Source of the DNA: Mobula birostris
Lineage: Eukaryota
DNA: 64,000 nucleotides
Direction of reading: 5' to 3'
Assembly: GCF_030028105.1 (NCBI RefSeq)
Contig: NC_092377.1
Location: 14,318,782 to 14,382,781 of the forward strand
Shown: in pieces, positions 3,451 to 58,515 of the stretch
Layout: each line of letters begins with the position of its first letter
Numbering within the stretch: the first letter of the stretch is position 1
Made by a program: the position numbers and the translations under genes
Notes under the pieces: generated by a model
Databases searched by the model: none
The model's input: only the letters and a program-made list of their open reading frames with translations
What the model was told of the DNA's origin: nothing

Positions 3451-3699
3451 GTTAAAGTTGTCCCTCGTGTATAGGTAGGAGAGGGAGAATTGATGGTGTG
3501 TGCTGTTGATTGGAATATAGGTTTACGGTAAGGTTTGGTGATTGGTTGTTGGTGGTCATTTGGTGAAAGAGCCAATAAAGGGCCCAATATCTAATGGTGA
3601 GAGCAGTTTGACCATTGTCCACTCTTCCATCCAGTTCAGGAACACGGTCAGTCAATGGCTCACATGGTCACCTGCCGTCTTGTTGCTTCACTGTTTCAG

Positions 3700-3862
3700 G
3701 GAGAGCAAGCTCACCATGCTGCTGCGAGAGTCCCTCGGCAATCTGAACTGCCGGACCACCATGATCGCCCACATCTCGTCCTCCTCCAGCCACTACTCCG
3801 AGACCCTGTCCACCATCCAGATCGCCTCCAGAGTGCTCCGAATGAAGAAGAAGAAGACAAAG
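3700..3862 (+). CDS. KIF26B: KIF26B exon encoding the end of the kinesin motor domain
   Basis: Acceptor tttcag|G and donor AAG|gttggt. Translates [54 protein letters not shown], closer to recalled KIF26B ([26 protein letters not shown]...[14 protein letters not shown]) than to KIF26A. Confidence 0.93.
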
Positions 3863-4199: not shown

Positions 4200-5800
4200 T
4201 TCCAGGAAAGTTGGAGTTTAATCTGGCCAAGTGTGAGGTGTTGCACTTTGAAAGATCAAATGTAAAGGGAGAGTACACAGTTAATAGTTCAGTAGTTCGA
4301 TTTAATGTCAGGGAACTGTATGCAAAATGCATGCTGAAATTCTTGTTCTTCGCAGCCATCCACGAAAACAGAAGAGTGCCCCAAAGAATGAGTGACAGTA
4401 AAAATGTTAGAACCCCAAGCTCCCCTCCTCTCTCTCCCTCCCACACACAAGCAGCAGAAAAGCAATGACTCTCCACTGCCCCCACCCACTTCCACAAAAA
4501 GCAATAGCACCCTCCACTTATCAAACAAGCAATAGCAAAGACCCCGATAAAGACCATGATCTGCAGTACCAAAAAAAACTANNNNNNNNNNNNNNNNNNN
4601 NNNNNNNNNNNNNNNNNNNNNNNNNNNNNNNNNNNNNNNNNNNNNNNNNNNNNNNNNNNNNNNNNNNNNNNNNNNNNNNNNNNNNNNNNNNNNNNNNNNN
4701 NNNNNNNNNNNNNNNNNNNNNNNNNNNNNNNNNNNNNNNNNNNNNNNNNNNNNNNNNNNNNNNNNNNNNNNNNNNNNNNNNNNNNNNNNNNNNNNNNNNN
4801 NNNNNNNNNNNNNNNNNNNNNNNNNNNNNNNNNNNNNNNGTCACTACGCTTTTTTTTTCCCAATTTCTCCACCCGGAGAATTGGGAGCAACCTCTGCCCA
4901 ACCGAGAAGAGAGAGAGAACACGATTCGCAGAGTACAGAGGCTCTGGCAGCTGTTCCCGATATTCCATTTTCTCCCGCGACACTTCAGTCAGAATCAGCC
5001 CGTCCCCAGGGCCACAAAACCTTGGAACCCCGAAAGTGCGCTTATCTTCTTGGCTGCATCCTTGGGACATCAAGAAGCCCCTAGGAGTGGGTCTCACTAC
5101 TGTAGAGAACCAGTCTGAGTGTAACTCCTGGTCAGAGTCTTCAACAGAACCCCATCCACCTGGAAAGGGAAAAAGGAGAGACATCAAAGGTAGAAATTAA
5201 GCTGCTTTCGTGATGGACACAAAAGTGTTGCCATTGAGCGTCATCGTAATGCTATGACCTTTAACCGTGCTGATGTACAGAGGGATCCTCGGGTCCAAGT
5301 CCATAGTTCCCTGAAAGTGGTTCCGTGGTGAAGAAGGCAGATGACATACTTGCCTTTGTTAGTCAACGCATTGAGTTCAGGAGTCAGGGAGTCACGTTGC
5401 AGCTTTAGTTGGGCTGCATCTGGAGTACTGCATACAGCTCTGGCAGCCCCATTATTGAAAGCACCTGGAGACTATGGAGAAGGTGCAGGATGCTGCCTGA
5501 TTACAGGGCAAGTCCTACAAAGAGAGGTTGAACAAACTTGGGTTGCTTTCCCTGGAGTGGCGGATGCTCCAGGGAAACCTGATAGAAATTTACAGGATTA
5601 TGCAAGCTATAGATAGATAGATAGGTAATTTATCCCCAGGGTTGAAATGTCTAATACTGCAGGGTATGCATCTAACGTGAGACGGGGTAAATTCAGCTGA
5701 AATGTACTGGACAATATGAGTCAAACGTTGCCAGATAGGACGAGCTCAAAGGGAAATCTTGGTCAGTATGGACCAATAGGCTGAAGAGTCTATTTCAGTG
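4200..5800 (+). mobile_element. CR1 LINE 3' fragment interrupted (~4290-5250) by another repeat and the assembly gap
   Basis: EFNLAKCEVLHF at 4214; CR1 sequence resumes near 5255 (gatgtacagagggatcctcgggtccaagtccatagttccctgaaagtgg). Confidence 0.65.
4582..4839. other. Assembly gap (258 N)
   Basis: Run of N. Confidence 1.
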
Positions 5801-9770: not shown

Positions 9771-10220
9771 ATTATACAGGAACAGATGCTTGCTTGTTGT
9801 ATTCGGCTTCTGAAAGTTCAGTTCCGTTGAGATGAAGCTGTGCCTCATCCTGTGATGAATCGATAAGTCCAGTTGCCCCGATGTTGCAGGACTGGGATGG
9901 AGCGGCTCAGATTTGGCTCCACTGTGAGCAAGTGGTTCGGTGGGCAATTGGAAACCCTTCAACTGCTTCCCTTCAGCCCACCCCAGACCCCACCTTTGGT
10001 GGGTGGTTTGGCCCCCCTTGTCCATGGTCTAAGATGAACTAGAGCTGACTGAACCGGGATCTACAGTTCACTAAGATTGCCAGCAGGGTGAAATGGGGAA
10101 AACCTCATGTGGAGCATTCACTAGTTGGACCGAATGGCCTCCTTCTACACAGTCAGTCAGTGGGTGCCATCCTGAATCCAGGGTTGGCGGCTATGCACCT
10201 CCATCTTCTTCGATCTTGCG

Positions 10221-10398
10221 ACAGCACCGAGTACAGCCTCTCCTCCAGTTTGTTCTTGCTGGCAGCCTTGGCACCGCCCACCACCGCCCCCGCCGAATTC
10301 GAGCCCGAGACCGTGTCGGCCTCCAGCCGCGGCTGCTTCTTCGAGCTCGACCCTTCCTTAGGCAGAGGCCTTGGGCAGGTCCAGGCACACGGTGCAGC
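10221..10398 (-). pseudogene. CYHR1: Circularly permuted fragment of CYHR1/ZFTRAF1 N-terminal coding sequence, inside a 260-bp TSD-flanked insert (10154-10413)
   Basis: Minus strand encodes [11 protein letters not shown], then in another frame PKEGSSSKKQPRLEA...[11 protein letters not shown]. Recalled CYHR1 reads [25 protein letters not shown]. 13-bp direct repeats CCTTCTACACAGT at 10141-10153 and 10414-10426. Confidence 0.85.
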
Positions 10399-10649
10399 GC
10401 CCAAGCTCATCAACCTTCTACACAGTACTTTACAGCAAATCTGTTATGTTCTCGCCTAAGGTTATCGACATCTAGGACAATTAGCAAATCAGTTTGCAAA
10501 AGTAACTAATAGGCTTCCTTCATTTTAGCAGCTTCTAAATGCTTTTTAATGCACACGTGCAATAAATCAAAGACTTCTGAGCTGCTTTATATAGCAGACA
10601 TTTATCTTCCCATGCCACACAAACCACAAGTTATTTTTAAACATAGCGA

Positions 10650-10980
10650 TACTGCAGGTACCAGAAATCCAGAGTGACACACACAAAATGCTGGAGGTAC
10701 TGAGTAGTTCTGCTGGTATTTATGGAGGGGAATAAACAGTTGACGACTCAGGACGAGACTCTTCATCAGGAACACTTCAAGTTATTTTTGTCTCCTCTAA
10801 TCAGGAGTGGGTTAGATTGTACAGTTACTGAGGGAATGCGGTTCCATCTGTCACGTCACCTCGTCCATCTGCCAGTAAACCACCTCATTCGGCTCCATCG
10901 CTCTTCCTCACCCCTTTATGTTGGATACCTATCCTCTATCTTTCAGCTCAGATGAAGGGTCTACACCCAAAACGTCACAG
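10650..10980. mobile_element. Penelope-derived repeat, two inverted pieces with degenerate hammerhead motifs
   Basis: acacaaaatgctggagg...cttcatcagga (minus-strand motif) and cagatgaagggtctacacccaaaacgtc (plus-strand motif). Confidence 0.6.
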
Positions 10981-11099
10981 AGTACTACAGCACAGAAACA
11001 GGCCCTTCGGCCCATCTAGTCTGTGTTAAACTGTTATTCTTTCTAGTCCCGTCGACCTGCACCTGGACCATAGGCGTCCATATCCCTCCCAACAATGTA

Positions 11100-13232
11100 C
11101 TGTACTGTGCAAAAGTATTGGGCACATATATATAGCTAGGGTACCCAAGGCTTTTGTACAGTACCGTAGTAATTTTATGTATTGCATCACAAAAAATATA
11201 AAATTTAATGACATGTGTGAGTGATGATAAACCTGATTCTGATATGGGTCTTTGTTGTGGACTGAGAGTGGGAAAGGGGGCAGAGTGAGGAGAACTAGGG
11301 TTGGGAAAAGGTGAAGGGAGAGTGGAGAGAGTGGGAAGCACCAGAGAGGCATTCTGTTGTGATCAATAAGCCGATTGTTTAGAATCAAATGATGCTGCCT
11401 GGTGTTTCAGGGCTGGGTGTGTCTGCACCCACACCACCATCCCACCCCACCCCAGCTCTCCTCCTCTGCAGCACTCCACCCTCACTATTCCCAAAATCTT
11501 TTACTCTCGCCAGATTTACAAACTCGCTCTCCAATCCACGTTGACAAATACAGTGCCTATAAAAAGTATTCACCCCCCCCCCGCCGCCCGGGAAGTTTTC
11601 ATGTTTTACTGTTTTACAATATTGAATCACAGTGGATTTAATTTGGCTTTTCTTGACACTGATCAACAGAAAAAGACTCCTTTGTGTCAAAGTGAAAACA
11701 GATCTCTACAAAGTGATCTAAATTAATTACAAATATAAAACACAAAAGAATTGATTGTATAAGTATTCATCCCCTTTAATATAACCCACCAAATCATCAC
11801 TGACGCAGCCAATTGGTTTTAGAAGTCATAAAACTATTTAAATGGAGATCACCTGTGTGCAGTGAAGGTGTTTCAATTGATTGTCGTAAAAATACACCTG
11901 TATCTGGAAGGTCCTACTGTTGGTGAGTCAGTATCCTGGCAAAAACTACATCATGAAAACAAAAGAACACTCCAAGCAACACTGTGAAAAGGTTATTGAA
12001 AAGCACAAGTCAGAAGATGGATACTAGAAAATTTCCAAGTCACTGAATACCCCTTTGAGTACAGTTAAGTCAATCATCAAGAAATGGAAAGAATATGGCA
12101 CAGCTGTAAATCTGCCTAGAGCAGGCCGTCCTCAAAAACTGAGTGACCGTGCAAGAAGGGGACAAGTGAGGGAGGCCACCAAGAGACCTATGACAACTCT
12201 GGAGGAGTTACAAGCTTCAATGGCTGAGATGGGAGAGACTGCGCATACAACAGCTGTTGCCCAAGTGTATCACCAGTTGCAGCTTTATGGGAGAGTGGCA
12301 AAGAGAAAGACACTGTTGAAAAAACTCACATGAAATCTCAACTGGAGTTTGCCAGAAGGCGTCTGGGAGACTCTGAAGTCAGCTGGAAGAAGGTTCTATG
12401 GTCTGTTGAAACCAAGATTGAGCTTTTTGGCCATCAGACTAAATGTTATGCACTGCACATCATCAAAAACACACTATCTCTGCCATGAAGCATGGTGGTG
12501 GCTGCATCATGCTGTGGGGATGCTTCACTGCAGCAGGCCCTGGAAGGCTTGTGAAGATAGAGGGTAAAATGAATGCAGCAAAATACAGGGAAATTCTGGA
12601 GGAAAACCTGATGTAGACAGCAAGAAAACTGCGACTTGGGAGAAGATTTGTTTTCCAGCTCGACAATGACCCCAAGCGTAAAGCCAAAGCTACACAGAAA
12701 TGGTTTAAAAACAACAAAGTTAATGTCTTGGACTGGCCAAGCCAGAGTCCAGACCGCAATCCAATTGAGAATTTGTGGCTGGACTTGAAAAGGGCTGTTC
12801 ACTCACGATCTCCATGTAATCTGACAGAGCTTGAGCAGTTTTGTAAAGAATGGGGACAAACTGCAGTGTCCAGATGAGACCTATCCACACAGACTCAAGG
12901 CTGTAATTGCTGCCAAAGGAGCATCTACTAAACACTGACTTGAAGGAGATGAATACTTGTGCAATTAATTATTTTGTGTTTTATATTTGTAATTAATTTA
13001 GATCACATTGTAGAGATCTGTTTTCATTTTGACATGAAAGAATCTTTTTCTGTTGATCAGTGTCAAAAAAGCCAAATTAAATCCATTGTTGTGGAACAAT
13101 TGTTGTAAAACAATAAAACAGGAACATTTTCAAGGGGGGGGTGAATACTTTATATAGGCGCAGTACAGTACTATGCAAAAGTCTTATCAATCCTAGCTCT
13201 ATATATATATCTAAGACTTCTACATAGCTCTG
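11100..13232. mobile_element. Non-autonomous Tc1-type composite element (mini-palindrome ends, ~390 bp core), split by the Tc1 insertion
   Basis: Ends c(a/t)gtact(g/a)tgcaaaagt at 11100 and 13166; a second copy without the insertion lies at ~14297-14778. Confidence 0.7.
11551..13163 (+). mobile_element. Full-length but inactive Tc1/mariner transposon (IR/DR-type TIRs)
   Basis: ~225-bp TIRs (CAGTGCCTATAAAAAGTATTCACCCC...) with an inner repeated AAGTATTCA(C/T)CCC and TA flanks. Transposase remnants ~11953-12938: STVKSIIKKWKEYG...[41 protein letters not shown]. Stops and frameshifts present; the first catalytic D reads V (WSVET). Confidence 0.95.
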
Positions 13233-16024: not shown

Positions 16025-16650
16025 GAATCAGAGTCAGATTTAACATCACTGGCATATGTTGTGAAATTTGTTGTTATGTGGCAGCAGTACATTGCAAAAC
16101 ATAATAGTAAAATTGTAAATTACAGTAAAAAAGTGAAATAAGTAGTGCAAAATGAGAACAAAGTAGTCTGTTTTAGTGGAAAGTGGTCATAGTCTTCACT
16201 TCTTTTGTTTTAATGGGTTCTTCTGGGCCTCTTTATTGCGTGGCTCCCTGTAAGGAGACAAATCTCAAGATTGTACGAAGCGTACTTTCTTTGATAATAA
16301 ATGTACTTCGAACTGTAGTGATTAGGCTTGTGCAGGTTGGTTCAAGAACAAGATGGCTGAGGGAAGTAGACGTTCTTTAACCTGTGGTGTCGGAGTTCAG
16401 GCTTCTGGTCTCCTTGCACAGTGGTAGCTGTGAGAAGAAGGCATTGCTTGGACGGTACGGTAGGTATCTTTGTTGCTTTCCTGTGGCAGTGCCTCCTGTA
16501 GGGAACACCAGTGGCAGGGAGGGATGTATTAGGCTGGTATCTCTGCAGCTCAAATTGCCACATTAGCCATGATGGAGACTTTCAACGGCACATGTAGAAG
16601 TTTGTTTGAGTATTCAGTGCCAAGTCAAAGCTCCTTAACCTCTGAAAGAA
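16025..16650 (-). mobile_element. Old Rex/Babar-like LINE remnants
   Basis: agaatcagagtcag tail and degenerate RT C-terminal sequence similar to other copies in the window. Confidence 0.5.
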
Positions 16651-16714
16651 GTGGGTGGAGGGTTGCCTAGTGCTTTTAGGCAGTGATGTTGACTGGCATT
16701 CTCTCCTCTTCCAG

Positions 16715-19700
16715 TACACCTCCAGCTCATCCGGAGGCGAGAGCTCCTGCGAAGAGGGACGAATGCGGCGGCCAACGCAGCTGCGGCCTTTCCACCCGCG
16801 GGCTGGGGCTGACCCGGACCTGCCCATGCTGAACTTGGCGGGAGAGCCCGATTACTCCTCCAGCAGCGAGCAGTCGTGCGACACCGTGATCTACGTGGGC
16901 CCTAACGGCGCTGCGCTCTCCGACAAAGAGCTGACGGACAACGAGGGCCCGCCCGAGTTCGTCCCCATCATCCCCTCGCTGCAGAGGGCCCGAAAGGAGG
17001 CAGGGCCGGAGGGAGGGGCAGAGGGGGACTGCCTGAAGTGTAACACATTCGCTGAGCTGCAGGAACGACTGGAGTGCATTGACGGCAGTGAGGAGCCCAC
17101 CAAGTTCCCGTTCGAGGAGGGGCCCGGCTCACAGAACCCTGCCGGCCATGGGGAGGCCGAGGCTCCTCAGCGACTCGCTAGAGAGGTCTCCGAGGAGCCC
17201 GTCCAGACCAGGCCCCAGGCTGGCTCAGCTCTGGCTGGTGGCCCCTCAGCTCCCCCGTCCCCCGGGTCCCAGTCTGGCGCGTCCAGGGGTCAGGGGGCCA
17301 GGGAGGGCAGCGATCCTAAGCCCAGGCCAGCCGGCTCCCCCAGACTGGGGGTGGCCAGCCTGTCCAAAACGGCAGACTACAAGCCCCAGCCCTCGCCCTC
17401 CCAGCGCTGCAAGGTCTACACCCAGAAGGGCTCCCTGCCCAGTCCTGCCCCGCCCCCTCCACCTCCCCCACCGCCTCCTCCCCAGCCCGAGGCCCGGGCG
17501 TCCCCGGTCGGGATGAGCCCACAGGCGGCAAAGAGGCCGGCAGCAGAGCCGGAGGTGGCAGTTCAGCAGAGGCCACTGGAGCTGAATGGGGAGGATGAGC
17601 TGGTCTTCACCCTGGTGGAGGGGCTGGTAGCCAGCAGTGCCCTGGGCGGGGGACGGCCCACCAGCATCGCCAGCCTGGACAGCGACTGCTCTGTGCGGGC
17701 CCTGCCTTCGGGATCCAGGCCCGTCAGCATCATCAGCAGCCTCCACGAGGAGCTGGAGGGCAGCCTGCCCACTTCCCTCTCACAGCTGAGCCTGGCCCAG
17801 TTCCTGCCCTTCGATGAGCCAAGCCCAGAGGGGGAGGAGGGGGGCACGGTGCCCGGCAGCCGCCGTTCCTCAATCAGCTCCTGGCTGAGCGAGATGAGCA
17901 CAGGCAGTGACGGGGAGCAGTCGTGCCACAGCTTTGTGGCGCAGGGCGGCGAGGGTCAGGCACAGCCCCGGCTCCCTGCTCTTGAGACAGGTGATGTCAG
18001 CGGCCCCCAGGATGAGGGGCCGGCCCACGCGCAGAGCGGGAAGTTCTCCATCATGGACCGGTTCCTGCGCCTGCGGGAGAAGGGGTCCGAGGCCGGAGGC
18101 AGCCACCAGGTGGCGGCTGGATCCCGCGGTGTGACAGGCTCTCCGGGGAGGGCCACCGGGTGTAGCTCCAGCCCGCTGGGCCTGGCTGCGCACCAGGGAT
18201 GCTCCCCGCCCCAGACTGAAGTCCCAGTGTACCCCAGCATCAGTCCGAAGCCCAGTGACTCGAATGAGGAGGGTGGGAGCTCCCAGGAGCCATCGCCTGC
18301 ACCCAGCCGGGCCTCTGGTGGAGAGCCAGAGGGCGACCAGGCCTCCAGTGGGGCGAGATTCGAGGACCCTTGGCTGAAGCGGGAGGTAGAGGAGGAGCAG
18401 GAGGATGAGGAGGAAGAAGGAGTGTCTGGGCTGGAGGGGAGCCACAGCTCAGAGACGAATCAGGATAAAGTCCAGGGCTGGGTGGGGAGTGGGGATTGGT
18501 CTGGCGGGAGGGTGGCAGATGGCTGCGAGATGGCACTCAGTCCCTCCCCCAGCCAGGCCTCCGTCCTCTCAGCAGAGGGTGGAAGCGGCGGGAGCCAGGC
18601 CCCAACTCCACCTGGTCTCCGTAACGACATTGAGGCCCCAGCCCCCTCTGGTCACCGCGATGACATCGAGGCCTCAGCCCAGTCCTGTCGCCATGATAAT
18701 GCTGAGGCCGCGGCCCAGCCTAGTCACCATGATGACGCTGAGCTCTTGTCCCAGACCTGTTGCCGCGACGACACTGAGGCCCCGGCCTGGTCCAGTTGCC
18801 GCGATGATGCTGAGGCCCCAGCCCCGAGGACCCCCTGCCTGGGCACAGAGAGCAGCGCCTCCCCCTCACAGGCCACCACCCCTTGCAGTCCCAGGACCAC
18901 CCTAGAATGCAGACTGGGCTCCCCCAAGCACGGGATGCTGCCCAAACCCAAGGGCATGCCACCTCTGCCCCCGGTTCGCAAGTCCAGCCTGGACCAGAGG
19001 AACAGGGCCAGCCCTCAGCACTTGCCCTCCGCCCCACCACAGACCGGCATCCTTGACGACTGGAACCCTAAGGCCAAGAACCCTGCCGCAGATGCCGGTG
19101 GAAAGGGAAGCAGCGGCAAGGGTGAGCTGGCCAGTTCCCGGACCAGCTCCCTGAACCGCAGGGGCACTGGTCACTACGACTGCCTGTCTCTGGAGCGGCT
19201 GGGTAGTCTGAGCCCTGGAGGCCCCAAGCTGGGCGCCGGACGGGACAGCACCATGCCCAGGACCGGCAGGAGCTTGAACCGGGCTGGCCCTGGCCCCTCC
19301 TCGCCCACCCACACAGGCCCGGCCTCTTCGCCGAAGCCTGGACCCTCCAAGATGTCGGCTGTCAGCAGGCTGCTGCTGGCCGGCCCCAAGTGCCGCAGCC
19401 TCTCGGCTTCCAGCACCAAGACCCTCAGTTTCTCCACCAAGTCGCTGCCGCAGTCGGTGGGCCGCAGCCCCAGCATGCCCTCCCACTCCAGGAACATGTC
19501 CTGGTCCACACAGTCGCTCAGCAGCAAGCAGAGCCGAGGTGCCTCCGGCCTGGTGGCCAAGCTACCGCTGCGTGCTGTCAACGGCCGCATCTCTGAGCTT
19601 CTGCAGGGGGGCAGCAGCCTGTGGGCCCAGCAGACGCCCGGAGGAGGTGGAGGCGAGCCTGAGGGCCAGTCCCCAGACAAGGCCGCGCCACCCCCTCCCC

Positions 19701-19991
19701 AGGCCCTGCCCTCACCCTACAGCAAAGTCACGCCCCCTCGCAGGCCCCACCGTTGCAGTAGCGGGCACGCCAGCGACAACAGCAGCGTCCTGAGTGGCGA
19801 GCTGCCTCCGGCCATGGGCAAGACGGCCCTCTTCTACCACAGCGGGGGTAGCAGTGGCTACGAGAGCATGATGAGGGACAGTGAGGCCACGGGCAGCGCC
19901 TCCTCCGCTCAGGATTCCACCAGTGAAAACGGCAACTCCGTCCCCGGGCGCTGCAGGAGCCTGAAGGCCCCAAAGAAACGGACGACTGCAG
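16715..19991 (+). CDS. KIF26B: KIF26B large exon (3277 bp; low-complexity stalk)
   Basis: Acceptor ctcttccag|TAC and donor GCAG|gtaggc. YTSSSSGGESSCEEGRMRRPTQLRPFH...DYSSSSEQSCDTVIYVGPNG...CNTFAELQERLECIDGSEE...ELPPAMGKTALFYHSGGSSGYES are conserved KIF26 motifs. Phase 0 in, phase 1 out. Confidence 0.95.
18599..18826 (+). repeat. Coding 36-bp (12-aa) tandem repeat, ~6.3 copies
   Basis: APTPPGLRNDIE/APAPSGHRDDIE/ASAQSCRHDNAE/AAAQPSHHDDAE/LLSQTCCRDDTE/APAWSSCRDDAE/APAP. Confidence 0.85.
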
Positions 19992-20761
19992 GTAGGCTGG
20001 TCCGTGCGCATTTTCACAGCTCCGTGGGCTGGGTTTGGCCTGCAGAGGCCTTTGGCTTACACATCTATTGGCAGCAGGGAATCAGGCCTTCTGGTTCAGC
20101 GCATCTTGGCCGAGCAAGATACCTGTCTTGCTGGAGGAGTTCTGCGGGTAGAGCAGCATCTGTGAGAGGAAAGAAGTTGCCAATATTTTGAGACAAAACC
20201 CTGCATCAAGACTCAAAACGCCAATAAATCCATTCTTCCTTCAGACGCTGTCTGACCTGTCAGTTCCTCCAGGAGATTGTTCCCAGCATCTGCAGTCTGT
20301 TGTGTGCACACGTCCAAGCTGGAGTCCCATTTCGCCGTGGTTAGCTCACATCCTTCCAAACCTTTCCTATACATATACTTGTCCAATTGTCCACTAAATC
20401 TTGTAATTGTAACCACCAGCATCAGTTCCTCTGGCAGCTCATTCCATGTCCCCAGCACCCTCTGTGTGAAAAACGTGCCACCTCACACTGTAAACCTATG
20501 TCTCTGAGTTTTAGACTTTCCAATCCTGGGGAAAAGACTGAAACTGTTCACCTTGTTTGCCTCCCAAAGCTCCAAAGTCACCCCTCCACCAACTACAGTA
20601 TGTTCCAGGGAAGTAAGACCAAGCCTGTAGCTCTATCCCTCCAGTCCCTATAGTATTCCCATTAATCTTTTCTACCCCATTCTAGCTAATGATATCATCT
20701 TTACACCACTGTGTATAGAACATACAATACTGTGCAAAAGTCTTAACCACTCTAGATATTC

Positions 20762-22736: not shown

Positions 22737-25700
22737 CAGGGGTCCCCAACCTTTTTTGCACCGCGGACCGGTTTAATATTGACAATATTCTTGTGGACTG
22801 GCCGACTGGGGGGGGTGGGGGTGGTGTTCATGTAGGGTTAAACACACCTCAACATGTCTTTTACAGTTAGGGTTGCCAACTTTCTCACTCCCAAATAAGG
22901 GACAAAAGTAGCAGTCAAATCCTGACGAAGGGTCCTGGCCCAAAATGTCGACTGTACCTCTTCCTATAGGTGATGCCTGGCCTGCTGTATTCACCAGAAT
23001 TTTTTGTGTGTGTTGACGGGACACTTGTGCTTACCCCGAGAAAGACTACCTTTACCATGAAGCCTTGCGCGGGCACCTGTGTGCGCATGCGTGGCGTGCG
23101 CATATGTGACGTGCGCATGCGCGTATGTGCCGATTTCCCCCCCCCCCACACATCGGTTTTGGCCTAATCTTCCCAACTACACTGTACATACATTATTTCT
23201 ACTTCAAAAAGGCTGTGTATTTATCATATCATTCCTGCTTTTAGAAAACATAGAAAATAGGTGCAGGAGTAGGCCATTCAGCCCTTCGAGCCTGCACCGC
23301 CATTTATTATGATCATGGCTGATCATCCAACTCAGAACCCTGCACCAGCCTTCCCTCCATACCCTCTGATCCCCCTAGCCACAAGGGCCATATCTAATTC
23401 CCTCTTAAATATAGCCAATGAACTGGCCTCAACTGTTTCCTGTGGCAGAGAATTCCACAGATTCACCACTCTCTGTGTGAAGAAGTTTTTCCTAATCTCA
23501 GTCCTAAAAGGCTTCGCCTTTATCCTCAAACCGTGACCCCTCCTTCTGGACTTCCCCAACATCGGGAACAATCTTCCTGCATCTAGCCTGTCCAATCCCT
23601 TTAGGATTTTATATGTTTCAATCAGATCCCCCCTCAATCTTCTAAATTCCAACGAGTACAAGCCCAGTTCATCCAGTCTTTCTTCATATGAAAGTCCTGC
23701 CATCCCAGGAATCAATCTGGTGAACCTTCTCTGTACTCCCTCAGATGTCTTTCCTCAGATTAGGGGACCAAAACTGCACACAATACTCCAGGTGTGGTCT
23801 CACCAAGGCCTTGTACAACTGCAGTAGTACCTCCCTGCTCCTGTACTCGAATCTTCTTGCTATAAATGCCAGCATACCATTCGCCTTTTTCACCGCCTGC
23901 TGTACCTGCATGCCCACTTTCAGTGACTGGTGTATAATGACACCCAGGTCTCGTTGCACCTCCCCTTTTCCTAATCGGCCACCATTCAGATAATAATCTG
24001 TTTTCCTCTTTTTGCCACCAAAGTGGATAACTTCACATTTATCCACATTAAGTTGCATCTGTCATGAATTTGCCCACTCACCCAACCTATCCAAGTCACT
24101 CTGCATCCTCTTAGCATCCTCCTCACAGCTAACACTGCCGCCCAGCTTCGTGTCATCCGCAAACTTGGAGATGCTGCATTTAATTCCCTCATCCAAGTCA
24201 TTAATATATATTGTAAACAACTGGGGTCCCAGCACTGAGCCTTGCGGTACCCGACTAGTCACTGCCTGCCATTCTGAAAAGGTCCCGTTTATTCCCACTC
24301 TTTGCTTCCTGTCTGCTAACCAATTCTCTATCCACATCAATACCTTACCCCCAATACCGTGTGCTTTAAGTTTGCACACTAATCTCCTGTATGGGACCTT
24401 GTCAAAATCCTTTTGAAAATCCAAATATACCACATCCACTGGTTCTCCCCTATCCACTCTACTAGTTACATCCTCAAAAAATTCTATGAGATTCGTCAGA
24501 CATAATTTTCCTTTCACAAATCCATGCTGACTTTGTCCGATGATTTCACCGCTTTCCAAATGTGCTGTTATCACATCTTTGATAACTGACTCCAGCAGTT
24601 TCCCCACCACCGACGTTAGGCTAACCGGTCTATAATTCCCCAGTTTCTCTCTCCCTCCTTTTTTAAAAAGTGGGGTTACATTAGCCACCCTCCAATCCTA
24701 AGGAACTAGTCCAGAATCTAACGAGTTTTGAAAAATTATCACTAATGCATCCACTATTTCTTGGGCTACTTCCTAAAGCACTCTGGGATGCAGACCATCT
24801 GGCCCTGGGGATTTATCTGCCTTTTATCCCTTCAATTTACCTAACACCACTTCCCTACTAACATGTATTTCGCTCAGTTCCTCCATCTCACTGGACCCTC
24901 TGTCCCCTACTATTTCTGGAAGATTATTTATGTCCTCCTTAGTGAAGACAGAACCAAAGTAATTATTCAGTTGGTCTGCCATGTCCTTGCTCCCCATAAT
25001 CAATTCACCTGTTTCTGTCCGTAGGGGACCTACATTTGTCTTTACCAGTCTTTTCCTTTTTACATATCTATAAAAGCTTTTACAGTCAGTTTTTATGTTC
25101 CCTGCCAGTTTTCTCTCATAATCTTTTTTCCCCTTCCTAGTTAAGCCCTTTGTCCTCCTCTGCTGAACTCTGAATTTCTCCCAGTCCTCAGGTGAGCCAC
25201 TTTTTCTGGCTAATTTGTATGCTTCTTCTTTGGAATTGATACTATCCCTAATTTCTCTTGTCAGCCACAGGTGCACTACCTTTCTTGATTTATTCTTTTG
25301 CCAAACTGGGATGAACAATTGTTGTAGTTCATCCATGCAATCTTTAAATGCTTGCCATTGCATATCCACCGTCAATCCTTTAAGTGTCATTTGCCAGTCT
25401 ATCTTAGCTAATTCACGTCTCATACCTTCAAAGTTACCCCTCTTTAAGTTCAGAACCTTTGTTTCTGAATTAACTATGTCACTCTCCATCTTAATGAAGA
25501 ATTCCACCATATTATGCTATATTTTACTATATGTTAGAGTTATTTTAGGTTTTATGTGTTATTTGGTATGACTTGGTAGATTATTTTTTGGGTCTGGGAA
25601 CGCCCAAAAATTTTTCCCATATAAATTAATGGTAATTGCTGTTTCGCTTCACGCCATTTCGGCTTACGAACGGTTTCATAGGAACACTGTACCTTATCGG

Positions 25701-25925: not shown

Positions 25926-28044
25926 GGCTAAGTGACCTAATTCTGTTCTAATGTATTATGGTCTGCAAACCTGGCCTCAGAACTATCATCAAAATCATTC
26001 ACCTACAATGTAAAAGCATCAGTCCCAACGCAAACCCCTGTGGAACATCACTAGTCAGGGGCACCCAACTAGTAAAGGCTCCCTTTTTCCCACTCCTCCT
26101 GTCAATCAGCTAATGCTCTTTCCATGCTAGAATCTTTCCTGTAATACCATGGGCTCTTATCTTGTCAAAGACTTCTGAATATCCAAGTATACAACATCCA
26201 CCGATTCTTCTTTGTCTGTCCTGCTTGTTGTTTCCTCAAAAGTGGGAATGATTTGATGGAAATGTGAGAAGGATAAAATGGGATTGGTGCAAAGTTGGTG
26301 TAAATGGTTGATAGTAGGGATGGATTCGATGAGTGGAAGTGCTTGTTTCCACTCTGTCTCTCTCTATGACCCTATCTATCTGTGAGACTACCAACCTGGA
26401 AAGTTTTGGTGCTTCTGCTGGTGTGTGCTGGTTTGTACATTCAGAGGTCCAAAAAGTTGTTGCGAGTCTGTGTCACACACAGTTAAGGCAAACCCCTGCA
26501 AACCAGGTGGGTGTTGGCTTCAGTCCAATAAATTGTAGTCACCGACTCCTGAGATAAAATTTAATTTTGTGTAATTAACTGAATTGAACTATCCCAGATG
26601 CCCTTGTGGAATTCCAGCTTGTGCCTTGCAGATCATTAGTTCTGGTCTGGACATAAGACAGGAATTTAGCAAGAGTGCTGCAATCCTTCATTTGCCTTCG
26701 CAACATTTTGAGATTAAACTTGGGATGCTTTATCTACAGAAGCAGTCTTGATGATTTGCTTTCATCGAGGAAGGTCAAGGTCAAACTCTTCCTAAGTGTT
26801 TAATAGCATTGGGAATGCACCAGGAGTTCATTGTTTTACAAGATTTGGTTTAAAGGAGGCAGACAATTGGCTGATGAAGTGTAATGGGAGAGCACACTGA
26901 AATTGAAATCATAGCAGGAGTGTTGACAAACACATAAGCAATATCCAAGCAAAAGAAAAATCCAAATTAACATTTTGGCTCTGGGCATTGGCAACAGTCC
27001 AGTCGTTTCACTGTTCCTGAGAATGAATGTTTCTTTTTAATTAAGCAAATTTAAATATCCTAAATGCCTTTGTGTACCCATATCTATCAACTCTCCTGAT
27101 GTCCTGAAATCTCAGGAGACAAAAATTAGTCTTCCGGACAATTCAGAGACAAAATGGAAGACACTAATATGAACTTATTGAAGAAATCCTTATGTTTAGA
27201 GTACATTTCTTTATTGGTGATAAAAATATTGGATAAATACCAATTTGACTTGGTTGGGTAATTGGATTGGAGTGCATCCAAGCAGGTTTTACAACCAAAT
27301 GATAAGATTACCACTGAGAAGTGACCTTATCCCTGAGGCACTATCACCTGCATTCTCCTTCAAACCCACGCAGAGGGATAAAACCAGAGATAAAATAAAA
27401 GCAGGAAGTATTGGAAATGCTCTGCAGGTCAGGCAGCATCTGTGGAGAGAGTGTTCAGGACATTGACCTTGGATTATGAGGACAGAGTTTGTAAAGCAAG
27501 CCTGGTTACTCACTGTAGCAAAGGGAGTTACAGGGAACCGTTGTTTCCCTGAATCCAACATGATTAATCCAAAACTCCATCAAGTCCATTGTTTGATTCA
27601 ACTGACTGAACAGACCAAAACTTGACTGAGAACTCTTCACTCCTTCAAATGCATTCTCTTAAATCAATCTCTCCAATCAATATATCACTTTATTGAACCC
27701 ATTTCTTCCTGGCATCCATCCATTAAATGAATCACTTCACTTAATGCACTGCTTCATTAAATCTGTCAGGTGCATCACTTCTTTGAATTGATCTTTGTAT
27801 TCTCACTGACAGCCAAGTCTGCAGGGAATCATCCCTGTAGTGACCTGAGGTAACGTTTCAGTTTCATGCCCAATGTTGTTTGCCCTTGTGTTGAGTGCAT
27901 CAGTCTCTGTACCTGCGGCATCCTTATGGCTCTCGTGTCAATCATTGACTCCTGAAGCTGTTGCAAACTGACTTTTCTGTCGATTATTTTTCCTCCATAA
28001 TGTGTTCCTTATGGGAGAAGTTGATTATCCTTGTGCCTAACCAT

Positions 28045-29172
28045 AAGGTTCCACACGGTAGGCTTATTCAGAAAGTCAGAAGGCATGGGATCCAGGGAAG
28101 TTTGGCCAGGTGGATTCAGTATTGGCTTGCCTGCAGAAGGCAGAGGGTGGTGGTGGAAGGAGTACATTCAGATTGGAGGGTTGTGACTAGTGGTGTCCCA
28201 CAAGGATCTGTTCTGGGACCTCTACTTTTCATGATTTTTATTAACGACCTGGATGTGGGGGTAGAAGGGTGGGTTGGCAAGTTTGGAGACGACACAAAGG
28301 TTGGTGGTGTTGTAGATAGTGTAGAGGATTGTCAAAGATTGCAGAGAGAGATTGATAGGATGCAGAAGTGGGCTGAGAAGTGGCAGATGGAGTTCAACCC
28401 GGAGAAGTGTGAGGTGGTACACTTTGGAAGGACAAACTCCAAGGCAGAGTACAAAGTAAATGGCAGGATACTTGGTAGTGTGGAGGAGCAGAGGGATCTG
28501 GGGGTACATGTCCACAGATCCCTAAAAGTTGCCTCACAGGTGGATAGGGTAGTTAAGAAAGCTTATAGGGTGTTAGCTTTCGTAAGTCAAGGGATAGAGT
28601 TTAAGAGTCGCGATGTAATGTTGTAGCTCTATAAAACTCTGGTTAGGCCACACTTGGAGTACTGTGTCCAGTTCTGGTCACCTCACTATAGGAAGGATGT
28701 GGAAGCATTGGAAAGGGTACAGAGGAGATTTACCAGGATGCTGCCTGGTTTAGAAAGTATGCATTATGATCAGAGATTAAGGGAGCTAGGGCTTTACTCT
28801 TTGGAGAGAAGGAGGATGAGAGGAGACATGATAGAGGTGTACAAGATAATAAGAGGAATAGATAGAGTGGATAGCCAGCACCTCTTCCCCAGGGCACCAC
28901 TGCTCAATACAAGAGGACATGGCTTTAAGGTAAGGGGTGGGAAGTTCAAGGGGGATATTAGAGGAAGGTTTTTACTCAGAGAGTGGTTGGTGCGTGGAAT
29001 GCACTGCCTGAGTCAGTGGTGGAGGCAGATACACTCGTGAAGTTTAAGAGACTACTAGACAGGTATATGGAGGAATTTAAGGTGGGGGCTTATATGGGAG
29101 GCAGGATTTGAGGGTCGGCACAACATTGTGGGCCGAAGGGCCTGTACTGTGCTGTACTATTCTATGTTCTAT
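28045..29172 (+). mobile_element. Young CR1 LINE 3' portion
   Basis: KVPHGRLIQK...GVPQGSVLGP...KFGDDTK...LEYCVQFWSPHYRKD; (ttctatg)n tail. Confidence 0.93.
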
Positions 29173-50739: not shown

Positions 50740-52905
50740 GAAATCATAGAAAACCTACAGCACAATACAGGCCCTTCGGCCCACAAAGCTGTGCTGAACA
50801 TGTCCTTACTTGAGAAATTACCTAGGGTTAACCATAGCCCTCTATTTTTCTAAGCTCCATGTACCTATCCAGGAGTCTCTTAAAAGACCCTATCGTATTT
50901 GCCTCCACCACCGTTGCCGGCAGCCCATTCCATGCACTCACCACTCTGCATAAAAAACCTACCCCTCACATCTCCTCTGTACCTGCTTCCAAGCACCTTA
51001 AAACTGCGCCCTCTCATGTCAGCCATTTTAGCCCTGGGAAAAAGCCTCTGACTATCCACACAATCAATGCCTGTCATCATCTTATACACCTCTATCAGGT
51101 CACCCCTCATCCTCCGCCGCTCCAAGGAGAAAAGGCAGAGTTCACTCAACCTATTCTCATAAGGCATGCTCCCCAATCCAGGCAACATCCTTGTAAATCT
51201 CCTCTGCACCCTTTCTATAATTTCCAAGAAGAGGTACAGTTGACGTTTCTTGTGTGTCGCTTGAAATTCCAGCATCTGCAGGTTTCCTCGTGTTTGCGTT
51301 CTATAATTTCCACATCTTTCCTGTAGTGAGGTGACCAGAACTGAGCTTAGTACTCCAAATGGGGTCTGACCAGGGTGCTATATAGCTGTAACATTAACTT
51401 TTGGCTCTTAAACTCAATCCCACGGTTGATGAAGGCCAATGCACCATATGTGTTCCTAACCACAGAATCAACCTGCGCAGCTATGGACTTGGACCCGAAG
51501 ATCCCTCTGATCCGCCACACTGCCAAGAGTCTTACCATTAATACTATATTCTGCCATCATATTTGACCTACCAAAATGAACCACCTCACACTTATCTGGG
51601 TTGATCTCCATCTGCCCCTTCTCAGCCCTGTTTTACATCCTATCGATGTCCCGCTGTAACCTCTGACAGCCTTCCACACAACCCACAACACCCCCAACCT
51701 TTGTGTCATCAGCAAATTTACTAACCCATCCCTCCACTTCCTCATCCAGGTCATTTATAAAAATCACAATGAGAAGGGGTCCCAGAACAGATCCCTGAAT
51801 CACCAACCTCCATGCAGAATATGACCCGTCTACAACCACTCTTTGCCTTCTGTGGGCAAGCCAATTCTGGATCCACAAAGCAAGGTCCCCTTGGATCCCA
51901 TGCCTCCTTACTTTCTCAATAAGCCTTGCATGGGGTACTTTATCAAATACCTTGCTGAAATCCATATACACTACATCTATTGGTCTACCTTCATCAATGT
52001 GTTTAGTCACATCCTCAAAAAATTCAATCAGGCTCGTAAGGCACAAACTGCCTTTGACAAAGCCATGCTGACTATTCCTAATCATATTATGCTTCTCCAA
52101 ATGATCATAAATCCTGCCTCTCAGGATCTTTTCCATCAAATTACCAACCACTGAGGTAAGACTCACTAGTCTATAATTTCCTGGGCTATCTCTACTCCCT
52201 TTCTTGAATAAGGGAACAACATCTGCAAACCTCTAATCCACCGGAACCTCTCCCGCCCCCATTGATGATGCAAAGATCATCGCCAGAGGCTCAGCAATCT
52301 CCTCCCTCGCCTCCCACAGTAGCCTGAGGTATTTCTCCTCCGGTTCTGGAGACTTAAAACAATTTGATGCTTTCCAAAAGCTCCAGCACATCCTCTTTCT
52401 TAATGTCTATATGCTCAAGCTTTTCAATCTGCTGTAAGTCATCCCTACAATCAGCAAGATCCCTTCTCTATCACCTGCCAATCTTCCCTCTTGCACTGTC
52501 TCCAAGCTTTCTCTTTTCTCTAACCATCCCTTCCTCCATCTCTTCAGTTCGGTTCCCCAGCAATTCTACTTTAAACTCTCCCCAATAGCCTTACCAAACC
52601 TCCCTACCAGGATATTGGTCCCCCTCAGATTCAGGTGCAACCTGTCCTTTTTGTACAGGTCATGCCTTCCCCAAAGGAGGTCTCAAGGATCCAAAAATCT
52701 GAATCCCTTCCCCCTGCTCCAATCCTTCAGCCACGCATTTATCCTCCACCTCATTCTATTCCTATACTGTACTCACTGTCGCATGGCACAGGCAGTAATC
52801 CCAAGATTACTACCTTTGAGGTCCTGCTTCTCAACTTCCTTCCTAGCTCCCTGTTTTCAGGACCTCCTCCCTATGTCGTTGGTAGCAATATGTACCACGA
52901 CATCT
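50740..52905 (-). mobile_element. CR1 LINE, internally deleted
   Basis: SLTSVVGNLMEKIL, SQHGFVKG, YMDFSKVFDKVPH, QGSVLGP, KFADDTK and LVRPHLEY; ttctatg tail near 50740. Confidence 0.9.
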
Positions 52906-57060: not shown

Positions 57061-57961
57061 GTTTGTAGATTTTCTTCACTCTTTCTACTCACTGCTCCAT
57101 CACCGTCAACATGTCTAACCTGAACATGACATTCAAACAGCAACTGGTCGTAGTGTACAGAATTGGGGGAGGGAAGGTGGAATTGGGACCAACTGAATTG
57201 TTAATGTAAAGGGAAACTGGTCTCGGAATATGTAGTAACCTTTCTGAGAGCACCACTAGCTTCACCCAGCACTCAGTATGTTAACACCAAATCAGTTGCA
57301 GTCTATTTAAGCCTTAAGGCACAATAGCAGAATTAGGCCTTTTGTCCATTGAGTCTGCTCCACCATTCCATCATGGCTAATTTATTTTCCCACTCAACCC
57401 GATTCTCCTGCCTTCTCCCCATAAGCATCGACACACTTATAATAATCAAAAACATATCAACCCCCACTTTAAACATACACCATGGACTCGGCCTACGCAG
57501 CTGTCTGTGGCAATGAATTCCACAGGTCCACCAGCCTTTGGTTAAAGCAATTCCTCCTCATCTTTGTTCTAAAGGGATGTCCTTCTATTCTGGGTTGTGC
57601 CCTCTGGTCCTAGACCCTCCCTCCCGTCCAATATAGGAAGTATCCTCTCCACATTCACTCTGTCTAGGCTTTTCGGTATTTGGTAGGTTTTAGTGAGATC
57701 CCCCTCATTCTTCTAAGCTCCAGTGAGTACAGGCCCAGAGCCATCAAACACCAGTCTCACTCTGTTCAGCGCTCTCTATGTCATGGGAGTAATGCAACAG
57801 AGAGTCTGGATGGGGAAGGGCAAAAGTTGTCGTTGGTATCATGTCCTTGTTGAGTCATAAGGGGTAAGTTTTATGGAGAGACTGGGCACTCAGTCAGCTG
57901 GAAGTCATGGCCTTTGAGACGTGGAGAGGGAGCTCTAAGACCGGCTGTTTTTCACTTCCAG

Positions 57962-58118
57962 CTGCGGGGATTTATCTGTTTCAACGCAAAGCTGAAGATA
58001 CCCGAGAACCGGCAGCAGAGGATTTCAGAGGTCAAAACCAAATACAACGTGTTGATGCAGGAGCTGGAGGCAACCAAACAGCGGCTGATGTTGGAGCCCA
58101 GTAAATGGATCAGTGAGT
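57962..58118 (+). CDS. KIF26B: KIF26B penultimate exon
   Basis: Acceptor cacttccag|CTG and donor GAGT|gtgagt. Reads [52 protein letters not shown]; phase 1 out. Confidence 0.92.
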
Positions 58119-58515
58119 GTGAGTACCCTGCTGGTGTGTCAGCCGAGCACCGTTGGCAGGGGTGAGAATGGGTCAGTGAGTGTGAATACCCTGCTGGTGT
58201 GTCAGCCGAGCACCGTTGGCAGGGGTGAGAATGGGTCAGTGAGTGTGAGTACCCTGCTGGTGTGTCAGCCGAGCACCGTTGGCAGGGGTGAGAATGGGTC
58301 AGTGAGTGTGAGTACCCTGCTGGTGTGTCAGCCGAGCACCGTTGGCAGGGGTGAGAATGGGTCAGTGAGTGTGAGTACCCTGCTGGTGTGTCAGCCGAGC
58401 ACCGTCGGCAGGGGTGAGAATGCTGGAGCCCGGTAGATGGGTCAGTGAGGGTAACTACCCTGCTGGTGTGTCAGCCGGGCAAGTTCCCACCGTCGGCAGG
58501 GCTCAGAATGCTGGA
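58105..58515 (+). repeat. 63-bp minisatellite spanning the exon/intron boundary (5 near-identical units plus a diverged longer unit)
   Basis: Unit atgggtcagtgagtgtgagtaccctgctggtgtgtcagccgagcaccgttggcaggggtgaga, period 63. Confidence 0.95.

Follow-up and report, generated by a model that had tools for sequence, protein, structure and literature searches.

A LINE-derived retroposon family in Mobula birostris carries a circularly permuted piece of ZFTRAF1 exon 1, possibly copied from a small circle

A short insert in a 64,000-nucleotide stretch of the Mobula birostris genome (hereafter the window, meaning that whole stretch) is a worn, 5'-truncated copy of a ~570-bp non-autonomous retroposon, laid out as the 5' UTR and start codon of a LINE, a circularly permuted block from exon 1 of the host gene ZFTRAF1 (CYHR1), the last 67 nt of the same LINE and an (ACTG)n tail. 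We regard it as virtually beyond doubt that this family exists, that it has the anatomy and partner LINE described below, with blunt joints and a single arrangement common to its copies, and that target-site duplications (TSDs), 5' truncations and neutral decay mark those copies; they are estimated to occupy 1,500–2,500 places in the genome. How the exon entered the LINE is a matter of interpretation: we think it probable that a circle of ~180 nt from a CpG-island first exon, either a circRNA or a mononucleosome-sized extrachromosomal circular DNA (eccDNA), was copied for one turn into a germline LINE and so founded the family. The parts of the window copy are as follows.

10414..10426, no strand: TSD of 13 bp on the element's 5' side, an exact direct repeat (100%)
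10413, minus strand: extra T at the 5' truncation point, where full copies have A; an untemplated base or a substitution
10399..10412, minus strand: end of the 5' part taken from the LINE, 14 nt at the beginning of the LINE ORF, which in this family carries a fixed 10-nt deletion
10359..10398, minus strand: block B, 40 nt, the downstream part of the ZFTRAF1 exon 1 piece (parent 1784–1823, 38/40 identical)
10221..10358, minus strand: block A, 138 nt, the upstream part of the ZFTRAF1 exon 1 piece (parent 1646–1783, 128/138 identical)
10154..10220, minus strand: terminal 67 nt of the partner LINE, comprising the end of its ORF and two ACTG tail units, identified by its match to the LINE 3' end
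10141..10153, no strand: TSD of 13 bp on the 3' side, exact, its first four minus-strand letters continuing the ACTG tail

The two 13-bp repeats, reported as exact when the window was read from its letters alone, are indeed identical (spacing 273), and about 310 nt of the element's 5' part is missing from this copy through truncation. Window 10412–10150 aligns with positions 311–573 of a family reference copy at 92% identity, and the natural LINE copy L112 matches window 10220–10150 at 91.5% over 71 nt. The 82 bp outside the exon block, which the sequence-only reading had left as 15 bp and 67 bp of unknown origin, both trace to the LINE, with the exception of the extra T. The copy probably lies in an intron, antisense between two plus-strand exons: a kinesin-motor exon (Pfam PF00225) at about 3692–3835, and a GC-rich open stretch of 1,181 codons at 16646–20191, which we take to resemble the large exon of KIF26A/B and for which an Atlas comparison of the 1,181-aa exon gave only leads under 0.9. 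With its left flank single-copy, the locus has no empty-site paralogue in this genome. Elsewhere in the window are plus-strand remnants of a Tc1/mariner (Sleeping Beauty-like) transposase at 12028–12874, with HTH and DDE_3 matches; reverse-transcriptase-like ORF pieces of other LINEs at 24062–25516, 27949–28626 and 51633–52232, presumably of CR1/L2 type as judged by eye; older repeats common to many fetched loci, at 70–83% identity (10640–10770, 10970–11100 and 11130–11500); a ~66-bp tandem repeat that reads as a repeated peptide (57952–58470); and a run of N (4582–4839).

Searching the genome with the insert produced 1,311 candidates, of which 40 were scored; all 40 span nearly all of the insert, 39 of them being other copies at 92–94% identity and the remaining one the window itself. 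Family copies extend upstream to a common start, reaching ~570 bp in all, at loci with different flanks. Every one of the 30 loci chosen by their 5' head contains the block, and among 88 loci picked by a 5'-UTR motif both blocks occur in 82 and part of the blocks in five (through deletion, interruption or divergence), while one breaks off before the block; these 88 loci included neither a LINE nor an empty form. TSDs of 9–17 bp flank 33 of 97 distinct copies, as against 1 of 97 shuffled-flank controls, an (ACTG)n tail, mostly of two to five units, is found in 85 of the 97, and among 29 copies picked by a 3' motif 10 start within the first 4 nt and are full-length, the other 19 being 5'-truncated. 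The family thus has the variable-length TSDs, fixed 3' end, simple-repeat tail and variable 5' truncation that define a non-LTR retroposon inserted by target-primed reverse transcription, a process that also accounts for the TSD and tail at the window locus. The absence of poly(A), which had been held against an ordinary retrocopy, is uninformative in a family whose copies have an (ACTG)n tail. Copy number was estimated by dividing exact motif counts in the genome (223 for the 3' joint of the element, 442 for the 5' motif) by the fraction of copies that each motif captures (8/84 and 9/30, respectively), yielding ~2,300 and ~1,500 copies; by exact 3' motifs, element and LINE stand at about 223 to 100. 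Divergence from the column majority is 5.8% in a mixed set of copies and 7.1% in an unbiased set.

The assignment of the block to CYHR1/ZFTRAF1 exon 1, made at first from a conserved motif, held up: among 370 candidates, the sole match to a 47-aa piece of a family copy is ZFTRAF1 of the sawfish Pristis pectinata, which in turn maps as four exons on G000:C4 (minus strand, 228.29–228.44 Mb) at 82–98% identity. Against this genome's own ZFTRAF1/CYHR1 exon 1 (the parent, with coordinates given in minus-oriented L054), BLAST returned the two abutting pieces in swapped order that had been predicted, 10398–10359 corresponding to parent 1784–1823 and 10358–10221 to parent 1646–1783, and the 178-bp permutation is exact, the joining of end to start without a lost or gained base being borne out by the gene itself. 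The putative circle junction proves to lie at 10359/10358, about 4 nt from the position first proposed (10362/10363), and the microhomology expected there is absent (0 shared letters). Block B stops 4 nt short of the exon-1 donor, whose GT comes after parent 1827. The earlier view that the junction falls at no obvious splice boundary therefore carries less weight than it was given: the joint is not canonical, yet the block ends 4 nt from a donor. With a GC content of 71%, a CpG observed/expected ratio of 0.91 and a CpG island as its source, the 178-bp block does have the microDNA-like size and composition ascribed to it. Gene order at the opening point, allowing up to two mismatches, occurs once in the genome, in the gene. 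A lookup of the exon-1 stretch listed it in 20 records from 8 studies under 7 organism codes, none of those listed being RNA.

The LINE was reached through its 3'-end pattern, which, preceded by a non-T letter, occurs at 111 places in the genome; 30 of these were fetched and comprise 27 LINE 3' ends and three family copies. An alignment of two long copies covers 3,241 bp, and the 5' UTR extends ~150 bp beyond it, for a length of ~3.4 kb. The LINE encodes endonuclease and RVT_1 (reverse transcriptase, RT) domains, frameshifted in the copies examined, and its 117 relatives are mostly single endonuclease-and-RT proteins of ~1,000 aa, three of them named 'craniofacial development protein 2'. One endonuclease-and-RT ORF, no ORF1 and a microsatellite tail are the architecture of an RTE, and we call the partner RTE-like on the basis of that architecture, database names and known motifs. 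Two unnamed assembled proteins, P0004 and P0005, are 65–66% identical to the endonuclease half of the LINE, the next best being 41–48%; they may represent intact relatives or point to horizontal transfer. Inversions at the 5' end, resembling twin priming in L1, were seen in two of four LINE copies in one set, and inverted pieces in 6 of 21 loci holding the 5' end (inversion-bearing copies are L111, L113, L115, L119, L121, L126, L128 and L129). L122 and L123 share ~140 bp (oriented 1001–1150) further upstream than most LINE copies, which may reflect a 5' UTR of greater length or a transduction common to both.

From this LINE the element keeps the 5' UTR, the first 25 nt of the ORF (minus the 10-nt deletion) and the last 67 nt, the permuted block standing in place of the missing 2,914 nt. 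Its 5' part is 84–92% identical to the LINE 5' UTR over about 215 nt, and a 7-nt UTR deletion is already present in LINE copies L117 and L132. At the head, about 90 nt of LINE UTR has been lost and an inverted duplication gained, which folds at -89.6 kcal/mol (z = -5.55); a hairpin of this kind is absent from 13 aligned LINE 5' ends. The inverted duplication of LINE 5' UTR gives full-length copies, among them L039 (1501–1640), a near-perfect hairpin over their first ~130 nt. Other origins for the ends of the element were considered and rejected: the head is not that of a Pol III SINE (derived from tRNA, 5S or 7SL), aligning instead to the LINE 5' UTR and containing no tRNA in 4/4 full-length loci; no ribozyme was found there, nor any Rfam match near threshold; and a snoRNA origin, raised by box C/D-like ends, received sub-threshold Rfam matches only, both ends being LINE sequence.

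The element reads open for 86 codons, from the LINE start to the LINE stop, and Pfam has no match to the 86-aa product. Stop-making changes numbered 4 against 11.8 expected in an early sample of 27 copies, and 5 against 15.9 in one of 42. In 84 copies picked only by the 5'-UTR motif (4 broken copies of 88 being dropped first), selection on the frame was rejected, with 33 stops against 38.8 expected (P = 0.32) and an omega of 0.98; the frame is intact in 25 of the 84. The copies decay neutrally.

Several observations bear on how often the rearrangement occurred. Out of 178 columns, 3 separate the family majority from the gene; the majority follows the Mobula birostris allele rather than that of the sawfish, including a three-residue length difference, so that the capture probably postdates the split from sawfish. 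All three joints are blunt, with 0 microhomology, and the block lies in the sense orientation of the LINE. Exact-pattern searches, which miss most diverged copies and might overlook small subfamilies, gave one match each for a longer-joint subfamily (a damaged family copy with a 1-nt insertion) and for an empty bipartite form (again a damaged family copy). Because the same junctions recur throughout, fixed differences are few, gene order is confined to the gene and no longer-joint or empty variants appear, the comparison points to a single founder, in which the permutation is likely to have happened once, replacing the missing stretch of LINE. Parent-state letters were rejected as a subfamily mark, 13 of 97 copies carrying one and only 1 carrying two; so were rolling-circle multimers and ordinary exon-1 retrocopies, given that single occurrence of gene order at the opening point.

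As to the capture itself, we lean, without great confidence, towards an exon-1 piece taken once from a small circle that was copied exactly one turn during reverse transcription, a circle being the simplest route to an exact permutation. The LINE RT would first have copied 67 nt of LINE RNA, switched at parent 1783 to exon-1 sequence in the form of a ~178-nt circle, closed or nicked once, gone round it a single time, to parent 1784, and returned to the LINE 5' UTR, skipping 2,914 nt; one turn round a circle would explain why nothing was lost or gained. RNAs ligated end-to-end before copying would give an identical product, and the sense orientation, the replacement of the ORF and the blunt joints fit either RT end-jumps or RNA ligation. 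According to the accessible part of one report (PMC8857657), the R2 RT jumps from one template to another that is not connected to it, and RNA pre-ligation gives rise to chimeras of L1; double template jumps are described for LINE chimeras in that of another (PMC2104539). In LTR-element captures by template switching, the available text gives microsimilarity at 25 of 29 junctions (PMC5131818); by analogy, its absence from the joints here would count against capture by RT.

The chimera likely then spread in trans by means of the partner RTE-like LINE; the TSDs and truncations, together with a 3' end and tail in common with that LINE, point to mobilization by target-primed reverse transcription. 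Later edits of the founder would comprise the 5' UTR deletions, the 10-nt deletion after the start codon and the 5' inverted duplication that forms the long hairpin. As no intermediate survives, the order of these events is not readable. Counting against RT capture, entry into a closed circle without homology is not, to our knowledge, a demonstrated RTE activity. As the source, an RNA circle appears slightly more likely than a DNA circle, the closeness of the block's end to the exon-1 donor pointing towards RNA, although the block's 178 bp, 71% GC and CpG-island origin resemble ~180-bp germline eccDNA and favour DNA.

We weighed four other accounts. The sequence-only reading had a circle opened and inserted at the window locus itself, creating the 13-bp TSD, and it could point to an exact TSD and permutation and to a left flank that is single-copy in the genome; the chance that it is right is now negligible, the whole insert recurring genome-wide, with the same arrangement and LINE parts at hundreds of loci with different flanks, and 13 of the 260 positions of the window copy departing from the family majority. 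A DNA circle in the founder is a more serious contender that we nonetheless consider unlikely: the CpG island of exon 1 would have given rise to an eccDNA of mononucleosome size, this would have been linearized and ligated to the broken ends of a LINE copy in the genome, with the loss of 2.9 kb, and that copy would have become the master. Beyond the size, base composition and CpG ratio of the block and a joint away from canonical splice sites, the accessible text of published work speaks for this route, germline eccDNAs peaking near 180 bp and being GC-rich and 5'UTR-enriched (PMC10581685) and swapped-order duplication through eccDNA having been described (PMC7188851); the former source, however, gives microhomology-mediated joining as the main germline route, and the circle joint has none. 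A DNA circle further requires that much of the LINE be deleted and the block inserted at the same point, adding two blunt joints, and makes the sense orientation a one-in-two coincidence. An empty form with the same breakpoints was not found (0 of 88 among the 5'-UTR-motif loci). Of the features looked for in eccDNA reintegration, then, size, GC content and a CpG-island source are present; microhomology at the joint and an insertion private to one locus are not.

Distinctly doubtful, and somewhat less probable than a DNA circle, is an origin without any circle, in which a cut in exon-1 RNA (or DNA) left two abutting pieces, one of 138 nt and one of 40 nt, and serial end-to-end RT jumps or ligation put them together in swapped order. 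Such jumps, or ligation, would produce blunt joints throughout, as are seen; the 3' end of the block, 4 nt from the exon-1 donor, may recall a trimmed 5'-exon splicing intermediate; non-colinear joints can arise circle-free (Dong et al., PMC4897178); and the partner LINE is prone to rearrangement, as its inverted pieces attest. Both pieces must nevertheless have been kept together, in the right order and with no base lost, for which a circle offers one tethered molecule. Within the preferred reading of one turn round a small circle, a refinement that we rate lower still would make the circle a back-spliced circRNA whose joint links the exon-1 donor with the AG that opens block A, with a subsequent loss of 2 nt in the founder. 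The back-spliced form would be 180 nt, or 60 codons, and in frame, the observed joint being 2 edits away, and 1.2% of 24,948 random blunt circles (140–220 nt, exon 1) lie within the same distance of a donor-to-AG joint, a figure that is post hoc. It is weakened too by the tendency of nucleosome edges towards exon ends. The opening point falls in phase 1, as do both breakpoints in the LINE, so that the 180-nt form would run in frame from LINE start to LINE stop, and the 2-nt loss and the 10-nt deletion add up to 12, in keeping with the open frame of the present element. Against this, first exons rarely back-splice, the acceptor is a GAG without a pyrimidine tract while a better-looking CAG lies 24 nt upstream, the longer joint is kept in no copy (its one match being the 1-nt insertion) and the 86-codon frame is not under selection in the copies.

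Among known systems, the element works like the bipartite non-autonomous RTE elements, of which Bov-A from BovB, RTE-N2_Lch and WALLSI3/RTESINE2 (Kojima 2018, PMC5786205) and cases in hagfish (PMC7245038) are given in the accessible parts of the reports, as a variant carrying host exon sequence. As in the elements outlined there (PMC5786205), the 5' UTR and extreme 3' end of one LINE remain, the ORF is deleted and a microsatellite forms the tail, RTE-N2_Lch keeping 214 + 70 bp and the ray element about 330 + 67 bp; unlike them, as far as those parts describe, the ray element is not made of LINE-derived parts only, 178 bp of permuted ZFTRAF1 exon 1 having replaced the ORF, and it has gained a 5' inverted duplication. 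The 33 mouse circRFWD2 pseudogene copies, circRNA-derived and flanked by LTR sequence (Dong et al. 2016, PMC4897178), likewise combine non-colinear host exon order, no poly(A) and retrotransposon-associated amplification. Their joints, however, are canonical exon-exon back-splices, whereas the ray joint lies inside one exon, 4 nt off the donor and 2 edits from a GAG-acceptor back-splice, a joint that the exact-pattern search found in no copy; moreover, the ray carrier is a LINE derivative and its copies are about 50 times more numerous.

Further parallels come from sources of which part of the text was accessible. SVA_F1 with MAST2 exon 1 (PMC12593883) resembles the ray family in that a single founder event fixed a piece of a host first exon in a non-autonomous retroposon; there the exon was gained by splicing, at the 5' end and in gene order, whereas in the ray the piece sits inside the element, in permuted order and with blunt joints. 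LTR-mediated retrocopies (Tan et al. 2016, PMC5131818) also replace an ORF with host sequence through a double switch, as do LINE template-switch chimeras (PMC2104539; bioRxiv 10.1101/2025.02.02.635956), some of which retrotranspose again; the ray family differs from what is described there in its non-LTR carrier, the lack of microsimilarity at its joints, its permuted insert and its more than a thousand copies. It shares a swapped-order signature with eccDNA-mediated duplications (PMC7188851), which as published are ~20-kb segmental events, and size and GC content with ~180-bp germline eccDNA (PMC10581685), whose circles mostly have microhomology; in the accessible text, neither system is shown to found a mobile family. 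We found no match for a circularly permuted host exon in a SINE or non-LTR element, and no description of this family, in the literature searched; Repbase and Dfam, outside that search, may hold it.

The element is a base-exact fossil of a LINE taking up a small host fragment and becoming a successful mobile family. If the circle reading is true, a small circle entered the germline and was amplified more than 1,000 times, into a family that outnumbers its parent LINE about two to one, which suggests that retrotransposons, in addition to direct reinsertion, offer small circles a route of inheritance. Each copy mimics a one-off eccDNA insertion, and in this lineage reads from ZFTRAF1 exon 1, 'retrocopies' and apparent circle junctions will mostly be this retroposon. 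With the founder joints preserved in more than 1,000 copies, and probably in related species too, the choice between a DNA and an RNA circle can be put to the test.
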